Shown piece by piece: positions 43,226 to 49,314 of a DNA stretch of 64,000 bases; the stretch's first letter is position 1, and every line of letters starts with the position of its first letter. Below the pieces are notes generated by a model that was not told where the DNA came from, did no database searches, and worked only from the letters and a program-made list of their open reading frames with translations. The stretch spans positions 9,768 through 73,767 of the forward strand of contig JAKEER010000295.1 of the NCBI GenBank assembly GCA_022616615.1. The letters run 5' to 3'. Position numbers and translations under genes: made by a program. Source of the DNA: Acidobacteriota bacterium. Lineage in GTDB: Bacteria; Acidobacteriota; Terriglobia; Versatilivoradales; Versatilivoraceae.

Positions 43226-43232
43226 GAAAAGC

Positions 43233-43383
43233 AAACCGCGGAGACGCAGAGGCGCGGAGAGCTAGGAACAAGCGTTGGATCGTTCTTTCCATTCCGAAAA
43301 TCGAAGATTGAGGATGGAGTATGGCCAGGCAATATTCTATCGAGGTGGCAGCGACCAAAGCTTTCTCTGCGTCTCCGCGGTTT
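43233..43383. repeat. 19-bp perfect inverted repeat flanking a 113-nt loop in the ilvC/cimA spacer
   Basis: The arms are aaaccgcggagacgcagag (43233-43251) and ctctgcgtctccgcggttt (43365-43383). The loop contains the 7-nt words aaaatcg|aagattg|aggatgg|agtatgg. Confidence 0.9.
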
Positions 43384-43403
43384 GTAGTTTCTTAGAGATT
43401 CGC

Positions 43404-45008
43404 ATGAAAAAAATTCAGATCTACGACACGACACTGCGCGACGGTTCCCAAGGCGAGGACATCTCGTTTTCCGTTGATGACAAGCTGCACATCGCCAGAA
43501 AGCTGGACGAACTGGGTATTGATTATATTGAAGGCGGCTGGCCCGGTTCGAACTTCAAAGACATGGCCTTCTTCAAGCGGGTCTCCGAGCTTGGGTTGAA
43601 GCACGCCCGAGTTGCAGCCTTCGGCAGCACCGCTCATCCCAAGAATAGTAAGGTCGAGGATGACAACAACATTCAGGCGCTGATCGAGTCGGGCACGCCG
43701 GTGGTCACCATCTTCGGCAAGAGCTGGGATCTGCATGTGAAGGTGGCACTGGGCATTTCGCTGGAGCGGAACCTCGAACTGATCGGCGATTCGGTGGCTT
43801 ATCTCAGGTCACTGGGCAAGGAAGTGATTTACGATGCCGAACACTTTTTCGACGGCCTTAAGGCGGATCGGGAATATGCCTTAGCAACGCTGAAAGCTGC
43901 CGAGCAGGCTGGCGCCGGCACGATTGTTCTGTGCGATACCAACGGCGGAACGCTCACCGAAGAGATTCGTGATTGCTTGCGGTCTGCCGTCGAGCGTCTG
44001 AAGACCCCCATCGGCATTCACACTCATAACGACTCGGACATGGCCGTGGCCAACTCGGTGATCGCCATTCGCCACGGAGCCGTGCACGTGCAAGGAACCT
44101 TCAACAGCTACGGTGAACGCTGCGGCAACGCCAACCTCTGTTCCATCATTCCCAACATCGAGTTGAAGCTGGGAATGCGCGCGATTGGTCAGGAGAAGCT
44201 GCGGAATCTGACCGAAGTCTCGCACTACGTCAGCGAAATTGCTAATATGCATCATCGGCAGGACTTTCCCTTTGTTGGCAAGAGCGCCTTTGCCCATAAA
44301 GGCGGCATTCATGTCAGTGCCGTTATGAAGGAACCCCTGGCGTACGAGCATATCCCACCGGAGACTGTCGGCAACGAGCGCCGAGTGCTGATTTCAGAGC
44401 TTTCGGGCAAGAGCAACGTGCTCTACAAGGCCGAGCGCATGGGCTTGCAACTCGATAAGGCGTCTCCCGGCGCCCAGGCCGTCGTCAACAAGTTGAAGGA
44501 GATGGAGCACTATGGCTATCAGTTTGAAGGCGCCGAGGCTTCCTTTGAGATTCTGTTCAACAAGCTAATGAACGAGCACAGTGAGTTTTTCGATCTCGAC
44601 GGGTTCCGTGTAATCACCGAGAGGAAGGGAAGCAACTCGTCCACGTCGGAGGCTGTCATCAAGCTGCGCGTGGATGGAACTGAAGAACACACGGCGGCAG
44701 AAGGGGTGGGGCCGGTCAGCGCCTTGGATCACGCTTTGCGCAAGTCGCTGACGACGTTTTTCCCGTGCATCAAGGATATTCGGCTGACTGACTACAAAGT
44801 CCGCGTTCTGAATGCCAAGGGAGCCACCGACGCCAAGGTACGCGTGCTAATCGAGACGAGCGACGGCCACGAATCCTGGGGCACCGTCGGCGTTTCTGAA
44901 AACCTAATTGAAGCCAGTTGGCTGGCGCTGGTCGACAGCATCACGTACAAGTTGAAGAAAGAGTACGGATTCAAGAACAAGGAGGCCCGGGAAAGGGTCA
45001 AGGGATAA
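43404..45008 (+). CDS. cimA: (R)-citramalate synthase (LeuA-like, CimA type)
   Basis: 534 aa from ATG 43404. [50 protein letters not shown] is CimA-type, and a C-terminal LeuA-dimer regulatory domain is present. Confidence 0.8.
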
Positions 45009-45017
45009 GTGGGTTAA

Positions 45018-45171
45018 GGGTCAAGGGTGAAGGCGAAAGGGTCAAGGCCGGAATGACGAATGACTAAGCTCGAATGACTAATGACGGATAACGGTCTGGC
45101 CATTCGTCATTCGAACTTCGACATTCGTCATTCTCCTCTTTTCTTGACCCTTTCGCCTTCACCCTTGACCC
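45018..45171. repeat. 154-bp near-perfect palindrome built from heptamer words (29-bp perfect outer arms)
   Basis: gggtcaagggtgaaggcgaaagggtcaag (45018-45046) is exactly complementary to cttgaccctttcgccttcacccttgaccc (45143-45171). The inner arms, gaatgac-type words (45051-45088) and cattcgtcattc-type words (45101-45133), are also largely complementary. Confidence 0.95.
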
Positions 45172-45198
45172 TTCAAAAGGCCTTGACACTTTGAGCCT

Positions 45199-46470
45199 AT
45201 GCCTATTTTCCAAGACCCCGTCGAAATAGAAGGTCATCTGATCGATTCAGGCATTCTCAAGTATGCCTTCGACAAAATTGTCGAGCACCAGGGTCAGTTT
45301 GAGGTGCTGGATTTTCGCATTGGGAGAAATAACCAGGAGACGTCCAAAGTTCGCCTGATGGTCCGGGCGGGGAGCCCGGAGCAGTTAGAGCGGATTCTGG
45401 CGGCGCTGGAAGACTTCGGCGCCGTGGTGGATTGGGACGACTGTCAGTTCCTTGCTGCGCAACAGGACAACATCCTGCCCGACGACTTCTACTCCACGAC
45501 GAATTTCGACACCTTCGTTAAGCTGAATGGCGAATGGTTTCCGGTGACGAACCAGAAAATGGACTCTGTGATCGTGTGGGAGGATGGCTGTGCCACGACC
45601 AAGAAGATCAGCGAAGTGAAAGCTGGCGATCAGGTCGCTGTGGGCCGGAAAGGCATCCGCGTCAAGCCTCAGGAGCGCAGCCGCGAATATTCGGTGTTTG
45701 ATTTCATGTCCAACGATCTGACGGCCGAGAACAACAAAAGTCTGCTCATTGCGGAGATCGCCAAGGCAATCGCCCAGGCAAAAGAAACGGGCGGGAAAGT
45801 TGCACTGGTGCCCGGGCCGGCCATCATTCATTCAGGCGCCGACCGGTACCTAAAAGAGATCCTTCAGATGGGTTTCATTGATGTCGTGCTTACCGGTAAT
45901 GCCTTTGCGGTTCACGACATCGAAAAGGCGATGCTCAATACGTCGCTGGGTGTCAATCAGAGCACTGGAAAGCCGGAAGAAGGCGGACACCGCAATCATC
46001 TTTGGGCGATCAATGAAATCAACAAAGCCGGCGGCATTCCGAAGGCCATCGAAGCCGGCGTCCTCAAATCGGGTCTGATGTACGAATGTGTCCGCCAGGG
46101 CGTTCGCTACGTGCTGGCGGGTTCGATTCGCGATGATGGTCCGTTGGTGGATGTGGTTACCGACTGCGTGCAGGCACAGAAGAAATACATTGCCGCACTG
46201 GAAGATGTGTCTGTGGTGTTGATGCTGGCTTCCACGCTTCACAGCATTGCGGTGGGTAATCTGCTGAGAGGCAGTGTGAAGACCGTTTGCGTGGACATCC
46301 ATGAGGCGACGCCCATGAAACTCAGCAATCGGGGCAGCAAGCAGGCCATTGGCCTGGTTACGGATGTTTCGTTCTTTTTGAGCATCCTGGCTGCGGAGCT
46401 CAGACGACACCAGCAGGAAACCGTGGGGCACATTTCACACCTCACGGATCACGCGTCACGTGATGCTTGA
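45199..46470 (+). CDS. TIGR00300 / LOR-SDH conserved-region family protein (ornithine cyclodeaminase-like, function uncertain here)
   Basis: 423 aa. MPIFQDPVEIEGHLIDSGIL...LDFRIGR..., then a Rossmann-like half (VALVPGPAIIHSG...VVLTGNAFAVHDIE...GHRNHL.AIN). Recognition is from memory of the family, not from a search. Confidence 0.55.
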   Translation: MPIFQDPVEIEGHLIDSGILKYAFDKIVEHQGQFEVLDFRIGRNNQETSKVRLMVRAGSPEQLERILAALEDFGAVVDWDDCQFLAAQQDNILPDDFYSTTNFDTFVKLNGEWFPVTNQKMDSVIVWEDGCATTKKISEVKAGDQVAVGRKGIRVKPQERSREYSVFDFMSNDLTAENNKSLLIAEIAKAIAQAKETGGKVALVPGPAIIHSGADRYLKEILQMGFIDVVLTGNAFAVHDIEKAMLNTSLGVNQSTGKPEEGGHRNHLWAINEINKAGGIPKAIEAGVLKSGLMYECVRQGVRYVLAGSIRDDGPLVDVVTDCVQAQKKYIAALEDVSVVLMLASTLHSIAVGNLLRGSVKTVCVDIHEATPMKLSNRGSKQAIGLVTDVSFFLSILAAELRRHQQETVGHISHLTDHASRDA

Positions 46471-46486
46471 AACGTGATCCGTGAGG
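46440..46486. repeat. 14-bp perfect inverted repeat overlapping the 3' end of the TIGR00300-like gene
   Basis: cctcacggatcacg (46440-46453) pairs with cgtgatccgtgagg (46473-46486). The words read cacggat|cacgcgt|cacgtga, and the CACGGAT word also builds the BREX-island repeats. Confidence 0.9.
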
Positions 46487-46525: not shown

Positions 46526-48088
46526 GTGGAAGAGAAGATCTACATCTTTGATACAACCCTGCGGGATGGAGAGCAGTCTCCGGGCGCTAGTATGAATCTG
46601 GAAGAGAAGTTGAAACTCGCGCGGCAGTTGGAGGCCTTGCAGGTGGATATCATCGAAGCTGGCTTTCCGATTGCTTCTGACGGCGACTTCGAGTCGGTGC
46701 GCCAGATCGCCAAAGAGGTTCGCTCGGTGTCCATCGCGGGGCTGGCGCGCGCCACGGAGCTGGATATCCGCCGTGCCTGGCAGGCGCTTGAGCTCGCGGC
46801 CAAACCACGCATCCACACCTTCATTGCGACTTCTGACATTCACCTTCAATACAAGCTAAAGCGAAGCCGCGAACAGGTGCTGGAGCAGGCCGCAGAAGCC
46901 GTGCGGCTGGCCAGGTCGCTTTGCGACGACGTTGAATTCTCAGCCGAAGATGCCGGCCGCAGCGATCTGGACTATTTGTGCCAGGTGGTGGAAGCAGCCA
47001 TCCGCGAAGGGGCTACGACCATCAATATTCCCGACACAGTGGGTTATTGCATACCCGACGAGTTTGGAAACATTTTCAGAGTGCTGCGCGAGAAGGTGCC
47101 GAATATCGCCAAGGCGCGACTGAGCAGCCATTGCCATAACGATTTGGGGTTCGCCGTGGCGAATTCGCTAGCAGCGCTCCTGAACGGCGCGCGCCAAGTG
47201 GAATGCACGATCAACGGCATTGGTGAGCGGGCGGGTAACGCCTCACTCGAAGAAGTCGTGATGGCTTTGAAAGTGCGCAAGGAGAAATTGGGTTTCACGA
47301 CTGGGGTCGTCAGCGAGGAGATTTACAAGACGAGCCACCTGCTTTCCAATACTACGGGCATGATGGTCCAGGCCAACAAGGCCATCGTCGGCAAGAATGC
47401 GTTTGCCCATGAAGCGGGCATTCATCAGGACGGCGTTTTGAAGCAGGCTCTCACCTATGAGATCATGACGCCACAGTCGGTGGGAATTCCAACCAACAAC
47501 ATCGTTCTGGGCAAGCACTCCGGCCGCCACGCTCTCTTGAAACGCTATGAGTCACTAGGCTACACCTTGGGCAAAGAAGAACTCGATCGCGCCTACATGC
47601 TGTTTACCAAGCTGGCCGACAAGAAGAAGAGCGTCTACGACGAAGACTTGCTCGCCATCATTCACGACGGCCTTAAGATTATTCCCGAACGCTACCATTT
47701 GAAATATGTGCATGCCACCGGCGGCAACCAGGTTCTGGCCAGCGCCACCGTGAGGCTCAGTAAAGATGAAGAGTTTCAGGTCGAATCGGCCACAGGCGAC
47801 GGCCCGGTGGAAGCCACCTATCGGGCCATCGACCGAATCACCGGGATGCCCGGAAGATTGATTGACTATTCAGTGCACGCGGTCAGCCGCGGGAAGGATG
47901 CCGTGGGCGAAGTCTTCGTACACGCAAGTTTTGACGGGCGGAGTTTCAGCGGAAAGGCAGCCAGCTCAGACATCATCGATGCAAGCGCGCGCGCCTACCT
48001 CAACGCGGTCAACAAGGCGATTCACGAGCGCGAAACGCTGGCCGCAAACCGGGTGGCGGCTCAGGGGGTGACGGTCCCACAAGGGTGA
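46526..48088 (+). CDS. leuA: 2-isopropylmalate synthase
   Basis: 520 aa. GTG 46526 follows aaggaggag. [30 protein letters not shown] and a LeuA allosteric C-terminal domain are present. Confidence 0.95.
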
Positions 48089-48243: not shown

Positions 48244-49314
48244 GTGCAGAAAAAAATTACAGTCATACCCGGTGATGGCATCGGGACCGAAGTCATCGAA
48301 CAGGCCTTGCTGGTTCTCGACAAAATCGAAAAAGTCTACAGACATCGCTTCGAGCGCCAGGAGGCTGTCGCCGGTGGCGCTGCTCTGAACGCAACGGGTG
48401 TGCCGCTGCCCGCTGAAACTCTGGAGAGGTGCAAAGCTAGCGACGCTGTCCTGCTGGGCGCCTTGGGAGGGCCGAAGTGGGACAGCAATCCTCCCGGCAT
48501 GAAGCCTGAGAATGGCCTGCTGGGGTTGCGCGCGGGGCTTGGTCTCTATGCCAATCTCCGACCGGCGCGAATCTATCCGGCTCTGGCTAATGCGTCCACC
48601 CTAAAGAGAGAAGTGGTCGAAGGCGTCGATTTGCTTATTGTCCGCGAATTAACCGGCGGCATCTACTTCGGGAAGCCACGCGGAGTCTCGAAGGAAGGTG
48701 AGGAAGAAGTTGGAGTTAATACGGAAATTTATCGAACGTCCGAGATTCGGCGCATTGCCAAGGTTGGCTTTGAGGCAGCCCGAAAGCGCCGCCGTATACT
48801 GACCTCGGTAGATAAAGCTAATGTTCTGGAAGTCTCGCAGCTGTGGCGCCGCGTTGTGACCGACGTGGGCAAAGACTTTCCCGACGTTGAACTCAGTCAT
48901 CTCTACGTGGATAACTGTGCGATGCAGCTAATAGCCAACCCGAAGCAGTTCGATGTTGTAGTGACTTCGAACCTTTTCGGCGACATCCTGAGTGATGAAG
49001 CAGCCATGCTTACCGGTTCCATCGGCATGCTGCCGTCTGCCAGCCTGGGCGGCAACATCGGCATCTACGAGCCAGTGCATGGCAGCGCGCCAGACATTGC
49101 CGGAAAAGAAATCGCCAATCCTATTGCCACCATCGCTTCGCTCGCCATGATGTTGAAGTATTCTTTTGGCCTGCAGAAAGAATCGGACGCCATCGAGCAG
49201 GCGATTGTCTCCGTCCTGGAAGCTGGTTATAGGACTGCGGATCTAAAGGAAGAAGGCAAGACAACCGTCGGCACAAAGCAGATGGGAGAGCTAATCATCG
49301 AGCGGGTCGGGTAG
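48244..49314 (+). CDS. leuB: 3-isopropylmalate dehydrogenase
   Basis: 356 aa. [25 protein letters not shown] and [26 protein letters not shown] are present. Confidence 0.95.

Follow-up and report, generated by a model that had tools for sequence, protein, structure and literature searches.

We propose that the long palindrome between the citramalate synthase gene cimA and the TIGR00300 ornithine cyclodeaminase gene (ocd) of this acidobacterial operon consists of two nested gene-less elements, each of them a hairpin with inverted arms of 7-nt words, and that the full form of such an element carries a four-helix-bundle gene of the TIGR02436/PF05635 type. We give this reading a probability of roughly 0.7. 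The evidence comes from the build of the palindrome itself, from the dispersed family to which its inner part belongs, from hairpins elsewhere in the genome that match its outer part, and from one sibling copy whose arms enclose such a gene. Positions refer to the window, by which we mean the whole stretch of 64,000 nt that was analysed and which is part of contig C525 of a fragmented 9.58-Mb MAG (918 contigs, GC 56.4%, 8% contamination). This genome is labelled G000 and its two congeners G001 and G002, contigs carry C numbers, and gene calls in the genome-wide comparisons are long-ORF approximations.

Architecture of the cimA-ocd spacer

The operon runs ilvC, cimA, ocd, leuA and leuB, all on the + strand. 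A sequence-only reading had placed the palindrome between cimA and a TIGR00300-like gene, and both neighbours are confirmed: cimA (43406-45008) matches TIGR00977 with 779 bits, and ocd (45199-46470), the gene for a nickel-pincer-nucleotide-dependent ornithine cyclodeaminase, matches TIGR00300 with 496 bits, followed on its 3′ side by leuA (46526-48088) and then leuB (48244-49314). The true start of cimA is probably the ATG at 43406 and not the TTG at 43275 with which the listed ORF begins; another assembly calls a 534-aa gene. The closest orthologs point to an acidobacterial genome. The public records of the closest relatives, the two nearest MAGs included, are titled 'Acidimicrobiia' and those of other close relatives Acidobacteria/Terriglobia, probably a labelling conflict in those records.

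Read in 7-nt steps, the left side of the palindrome is GGGTCAA GGGATAA .. GGGTTAA GGGTCAA GGGTGAA GGCGAAA GGGTCAA, then GAATGAC GAATGAC TAAGCTC GAATGAC TAATGAC. The five words from GGGTTAA onwards form the left arm of the outer hairpin, or shell (45016-45046), which is the exact reverse complement of the right arm (45143-45173) over all 31 nt, with 96 nt between the two. Inside lies the core, the left arm of which (45051-45083, from the first GAATGAC to TAATG) pairs at 88% over 33 nt with the right arm (45101-45133; CATTC GTCATTC GAACTTC GACATTC GTCATTC), around a 17-nt central loop (45084-45100) for which a small apical stem is predicted. The long, near-perfect palindrome that had first been noticed is therefore real, its outer arms reaching 2 nt beyond the 29 originally given, and the potential stem of ~65-70 bp ascribed to it agrees with the arm coordinates and the pairing. 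An 18-mer from the outer arm occurs three times in the window against 0.05 expected occurrences.

A further, imperfect helix of 12 nt (92%) pairs 44992-45003, inside the 3′ end of cimA, with 45181-45192, which lies 7 nt upstream of the ocd start codon, and it is present in the MFE structure. With this helix added to the outer and inner arms, the structure extends through the entire spacer, beginning in the final cimA codons and ending just short of the ocd ATG. The outer array reaches into the gene: the last five codons of cimA and its stop (GAA AGG GTC AAG GGA TAA, 44991-45008) consist of GGGTCAA/GGGATAA words belonging to that array, the TAA stop lying within a GGGATAA word. The 10-residue C-terminal tail is unlike that of the congeners (KKDEEAKLAT). 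At the other end the 10 nt that precede the ocd ATG are covered by the outermost helix, and the MFE pairing extends to 45198, burying the sole Shine-Dalgarno-like GAG. Folding had been suggested as a check on the palindrome, and both nucleic acids fold far below their shuffled controls: the RNA of 44990-45200 reaches -119.7 kcal/mol, compared to -59.3 ± 4.5 for shuffles (z = -13.5; 0 of 200 shuffles as stable), and the DNA of the same interval -70.8 kcal/mol (z = -13.6). A CRISPR identity was rejected, as the words are not direct repeats with spacers.

Hairpins also lie at the junctions on either side. The ilvC-cimA spacer holds a second palindrome, with 20-nt perfect arms (CAAACCGCGGAGACGCAGAG) at 43232-43251 and 43365-43384 and 113 nt between them, and a 19-nt-arm hairpin of CACGGAT/CACGTGA words (46440-46486) overlaps the ocd stop just before leuA. 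With the cimA-ocd palindrome, three consecutive junctions of the operon thus carry hairpins.

A dispersed GAATGAC family

The words of the core are not peculiar to this spacer. The sequence GAATGACTAATGAC occurs 35 times in the genome against an expected 0.04, and an nhmmer profile of the 118-nt palindromic consensus, built from 22 full copies, finds about 76 loci, about 48 of them full length. The copy studied here is a short variant (C525:54818-54899, window 45051-45132; model positions 23-120, E = 2e-10, 43.5 bits), and it shares non-periodic detail with the family consensus, namely TAAGCNC and the order of the arms. All 59 copies of at least 80 bp, one weak match excepted, lie between long ORFs, with the flanking genes co-directional in 28 cases, convergent in 10 and divergent in 10. 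No transposase gene is found inside the element, and no direct repeat of the kind left by target-site duplication is found at the ends of 47 copies.

About one third of the copies carry a one-sided tail on the right or left edge (GTTCACGCAAGGGGTGCGTCC, also given as GTTCACGCAAGGGGTGCGTCCTT(CAGGGACTGCCAAAG); for example C330:10844-10880 and C311:7535-7575), which gives the otherwise palindromic element an orientation. Relative to the flanking genes the orientation of the element is the same in six copies and opposite in one (p = 0.125), a count limited to the few clear copies; the tail motif yielded only eight cases. An RNAalifold consensus over 31 family copies retains only 14 outer pairs, all of them invariant, with no family-wide covariation.

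We considered whether complementary flanks, as in a shell, are a general feature of the family and rejected this, since most copies have none: the observed flank complementarity is 11-19 compared to 14.0 ± 1.9 for controls, most copies scoring no better than random positions. Nesting is therefore particular to a few loci.

Nesting of core and shell

The outer GGGTCAA arms appear to be a second element, belonging to another word class of the same kind, with the GAATGAC core sitting in its loop. Stand-alone GGGTCAA hairpins without a core are present at C253:4857-4931 (12-nt loop, -63 kcal/mol) and C427:3366-3432, and the order of the shell words at the cimA-ocd locus is common to both. Compared to the arms of the C253 hairpin there are two differences, each compensated in both arms, and in place of its 12-nt loop the present locus has CCG, the 83-nt core and TCCTCTTTT. 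The last of these is the asymmetric core/shell junction at 45134-45142, read from the sequence by comparison with the C253 loop; together with CCGG (45047-45050) it is best taken as the remnant of the shell loop. That the core went into the shell, as opposed to the reverse order of events, we infer from the stand-alone shells; metagenome scans with the outer arm and with a degenerate ocd N-terminal pattern returned no empty-shell allele of this spacer.

This arrangement does not stand alone. At C527 a diverged shell surrounds a full core, and unrelated palindromic repeats occupy the centres of the GAATGAC copies at C606, C384, C322 and C554. These shell/core cases and foreign palindromes imply that insertion into hairpin centres is recurrent, and the middle of a palindrome is apparently favoured as an insertion site. 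The repeat found in three of the GAATGAC centres (C606:31573-31873, C384:3789-3915 and C322:6462-6704) is GC-rich and itself palindromic, with a CCCCTCGCCCC..GCGGG.GAGGGG motif.

Conservation between congeners

Among 26 related genomes the GAATGAC family is confined to G000 and G002 and is absent from G001. The orthologous cimA-ocd spacers of both congeners are short, 118 nt in one congener, unrelated and without a palindrome, so that by parsimony the insertion at this spacer arose in the present lineage. The view that such a sequence is unusual in a conserved operon accordingly holds across relatives, both congeners lacking it, but fails within the genome, where there are about 76 copies and where two neighbouring junctions have hairpins of their own.

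At other spacers copies have been kept in place. Twelve of the 26 copies in G002 map by both flanks to spacers that also hold a G000 copy, and five more map beside a G000 copy at a contig end. In the 12 orthologous pairs identity is 79% for the elements (arms 79-80%, centre 68%), compared to 53-56% for the 60-nt non-coding flanks (random, 48%) and ~70-86% for the coding flanks. When 48 copies are ranked by similarity, the ortholog comes first in 5 of the 12 pairs and is one of the top two in 7, which argues that the copies were inherited in place and not homogenised; some of the conservation could also stem from concerted evolution among the copies. Differences affect 11.7% of the paired and 19.2% of the unpaired positions, and there are 14 double changes where 6.4 are expected, 8 of which keep the pair. 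The constraint is mainly on sequence, and the pairing signal is modest. With the stems only 12% changed and the neighbouring non-coding DNA randomised, the family copies are constrained and evidently tolerated. The suggestion that the palindrome is a replication or recombination hazard is weakened accordingly, at least 12 copies having persisted in the same spacers of two species that have diverged to 70-86% identity in the coding flanks.

The family as a whole is old, and gains or losses do occur. The G002 spacer orthologous to that of copy C64_12638 is 15 nt long, and opposite copy C795_8743 G002 has a clean empty site, which reads CTTGAATGA; this filled/empty pair reveals no target-site duplication. 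The spacer orthologous to that of C610_1569 (G002:C5:129140-129350) holds a palindrome of other words (GAAGTTC/GAAGGTC), representing either turnover or an independent insertion.

Association with four-helix-bundle genes

One family member encloses a gene. At C78:11953-12449 both family arms (profile positions 1-70 and 1-59) enclose a 133-aa ORF, the ATG of which lies inside an arm word (GAATGACTAAGG), with no second set of arms at that locus. The encoded protein matches TIGR02436, 'four helix bundle protein', with 71.5 bits (cut-off 24) and PF05635, '23S rRNA-intervening sequence protein', with 52.3 bits, and it matches PDB 2RLD at E = 1e-11. Furthermore, visual inspection shows arrays of 7- or 8-nt words on the flanks of about six of the nine TIGR02436 loci in the genome; several of the arrays form inverted pairs, and the words differ from gene to gene (ACGGCGA, GGGTGAA, AATGACA, GAGAACN, CGTGATA, CGGACAC). 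Words of the shell type, GGGTCAA/GGGTGAA, flank the four-helix-bundle gene at C387.

The same pattern is seen in relatives. Flanking inverted repeats exceed the 95th percentile of controls in 24 of 30 TIGR02436 genes from 20 genomes (one of the 30 loci contains masked N), and the best lag-7 self-match averages 0.69 compared to 0.42 for controls, with no excess periodicity at lags 5, 6, 8 or 9 in the same genes. The gene-bearing copy at C78 and the flanking arrays in relatives lead us to read the gene-less palindromes of ~118 nt as cassette arms without the gene, a link that rests on one family member together with the class-wide pattern. There is no ORF within the palindrome at the cimA-ocd locus. 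The C78 protein has no ortholog in G002 (best match 38% identity; G002 is 92% complete), and the conserved G002 copies may lack a cognate protein. In a different cassette, at C223:980-2000 of G000 and C22:257200-258000 of G002, a four-helix-bundle gene lies among repeated modules of ~170 bp with AATGACAAATGACC words, cassette and words being conserved between both congeners. A literature search that combined TIGR02436/PF05635 genes with heptamer palindromes found only a paper on the Coxiella intervening sequence (IVS) (PMC4990558), and the search turned up no account of four-helix-bundle cassettes with heptamer arms outside rRNA, or of gene-less copies.

The strongest competing explanation is that of a miniature transposable element or a repeat resembling REPINs, which a Y1/RAYT (IS200/IS605-type) or DDE enzyme encoded elsewhere would mobilise in trans; the C78 gene would then be a mere passenger that had come to lie, like other inserts, at the centre of a palindrome. 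Such an origin would fit a palindromic family that is scattered over intergenic sites and has conserved arms at its ends, a presence that varies between congeners, palindrome centres that accept foreign inserts, and a genome with about 10 Y1_Tnp genes. Within 3 kb of the family copies, however, there is no such gene, and AATGAC words are not enriched in the vicinity of the Y1_Tnp genes. The lack of target-site duplication extends from the 47 copies to the clean empty site, and most copies are old and fixed, not recently moved. A passenger gene is also at odds with an ATG placed inside an arm word where no second arm set exists, and with heptamer arms being the rule for TIGR02436 genes in relatives. 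On balance we consider mobilization by such an enzyme unlikely, and prefer the reading of two nested gene-less elements related to four-helix-bundle cassettes.

Explanations specific to the locus

A structure evolved for this operon, whether attenuator, terminator or stabiliser, with the role of adjusting cimA expression relative to the downstream leucine/ornithine genes, would make sense of a palindrome that spans the spacer exactly from stop to start, with its outermost helix over the region just upstream of the ocd ATG, and would draw some support from the constraint on family copies in general. The same family nevertheless occupies ~76 unrelated spacers, divergent and convergent ones included, and the closest relatives have the same gene order without the palindrome. 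Nor does the sequence resemble a known regulatory RNA. An intrinsic (Rho-independent) terminator was rejected, there being no terminator-like site on either strand of 44800-45400 and no T-run, and the earlier prediction of a strong block to transcription thus finds no support in the form of an intrinsic terminator, which would need a T-tract on one of the strands. An Rfam structured RNA, riboswitch or leader was likewise rejected, as the best matches reach 17-26 bits against hairpin-shaped miRNA/snoRNA models with cut-offs of 64-100 bits. We regard an operon-specific origin as very unlikely and retain the nested gene-less elements as the preferred reading.

A local repeat generated by 7-nt slippage and strand switching, or a chimeric assembly, in either case a copy of nothing, would account for the periodic words and the perfect 31-nt arms but is hardly credible, as the core shares its non-periodic detail with the family and the shell its word order with C253 and C427, and as the sequence recurs in independent data. 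Two further NCBI assemblies, on contigs 49 and 95 kb long, contain an identical 271-nt region, and three Logan contigs from three sequencing runs all start at 45144, one base inside the outer right arm, where a k-mer graph is expected to break at a 31-nt inverted repeat. DNA of the organism is contained in runs SRR16971108, SRR16971109 and SRR29686276. The palindrome is no assembly artefact, and sequence error is, as had been said from the outset, not the issue. The same kind of break may explain why contigs C460, C198, C385 and C163 end inside family copies. Two practical warnings follow: long palindromes in operon spacers of Acidobacteriota should be annotated as family members and not as locus-specific regulators, and such palindromes break short-read assemblies.

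A model for RNA processing

In the model that we favour, a GGGTCAA shell hairpin would have received a GAATGAC core into its loop in this lineage. Neither a promoter nor a terminator consensus occurs in the spacer, which makes co-transcription of the element with the operon probable, and in the ilvC-cimA-ocd-leuA-leuB transcript the spacer would fold into a duplex of ~65 bp. RNase III needs a duplex of about 20 bp, and its gene (rnc) is present in the genome, at C500:14643-15305. The Coxiella IVS, which has an S23p ORF, a 28-bp terminal stem and tandem GACAGAT heptamers, is cut by RNase III (PMC4990558). Given the ~65-bp duplex, the rnc gene and the cutting of homologous rRNA elements, cleavage between cimA and ocd would be expected: by analogy to the stems of rRNA intervening sequences, RNase III would cut the duplex, separating the cimA portion of the mRNA from the ocd portion and exposing or removing the paired translation start region of ocd. 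That the spacer is cleaved in this way, and that the outermost helix affects the translation start, we rate as a real possibility, a little short of even odds.

Conservation at the level of words suggests a protein that reads sequence, and the four-helix-bundle protein suggests itself as the candidate reader. Taken further, heptamer-armed palindromes could act as cis sites in a widespread system with a dedicated four-helix-bundle (Avd/S23p-like) protein to read each class of words, gene-less copies being kept by selection as RNA-processing or punctuation signals in operons and the classical 23S rRNA IVS being a special case. The conservation of the orthologous copies, with 12% change in the stems beside a randomised spacer, would fit such reading by a cognate protein, and yet we hold this wider scheme to be speculative and rather doubtful.

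Comparison with known systems

Like REP/BIME and REPIN-RAYT repeats, the GAATGAC elements are short, dispersed, intergenic hairpin repeats that often lie in operons and are conserved in place, and REP hairpins are known to affect mRNA stability. Unlike REPIN-RAYT, none of the 10 Y1_Tnp matches is flanked by GAATGAC repeats (0 within 3 kb), and unlike REP, a single sequence of 20-35 nt, the arms are arrays of 7-nt words and the only gene that they enclose codes for a four-helix-bundle protein. The Correia elements of Neisseria, the ERIC/IRU elements of enterobacteria and the RUP/BOX elements of pneumococci are similar as imperfect intergenic palindromes of ~100-150 bp in tens of copies. Palindromes of the Correia, ERIC and RUP/BOX type are co-transcribed with their neighbours; in the case of Correia and ERIC, RNase III or RNase E cleaves the RNA. 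The present family differs from these in its 7-nt periodic arms and has no sequence similarity to them; it differs from MITEs in having no target-site duplication and no transposase-encoding parent, its sole gene-bearing copy encoding a four-helix-bundle protein.

Arrays of 7-nt words are also known from intergenic regions. In cyanobacteria the STRR are intergenic 7-nt-word arrays whose words vary by lineage. Intergenic TAACTGA heptamer repeats of unexplained function occur in Beggiatoaceae (PMC4679880). Both are mainly direct arrays upstream of genes, whereas the arrays described here form hairpins as inverted pairs and are associated with a family of protein genes. We know of no explanation for why many bacterial genomes carry 7-nt tandem repeats in excess.

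The closest known system is the ORF-bearing 23S rRNA IVS of Coxiella burnetii, Leptospira and others, with its S23p ORF. The two share a long stem formed by terminal inverted repeats and tandem 7-nt repeats in the arms and, for the sibling at C78 only, a PF05635/TIGR02436 four-helix-bundle gene in the loop. They differ in that the palindrome lies in an mRNA spacer without any rRNA match and not in rRNA helix 9, 25 or 45, that this copy is gene-less, that there are ~76 loci, and that two elements are nested. By this analogy the palindrome may work like an rRNA IVS; being outside rRNA and without an ORF in this copy, it is not a member of that class. The rRNA of this MAG was found by motif search as fragments only. 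In one of these, a 23S rRNA 3′ fragment at C693:5620-6020 (compare C313:1-130), ~130 nt are inserted immediately 5′ of the sarcin-ricin loop motif. With its short terminal stem and internal array of 7-nt words (AATTCAA...) this insert looks IVS-like; the contig may be chimeric or a contaminant.

To our knowledge the nature of 23S rRNA intervening sequences and the role of their four-helix-bundle protein have been open questions since about 1990. The present locus adds to that comparison an inverted heptamer-array build that, with or without a gene, exists in mRNA spacers as a multicopy family, and heptamer-armed elements that nest in one another's loops. Copies are fixed in place and better conserved across species than the surrounding DNA, which argues for a function. 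Finally, the GAATGAC arms and the C78 protein provide a defined pair of sequence and protein with which such a function can be put to the test.
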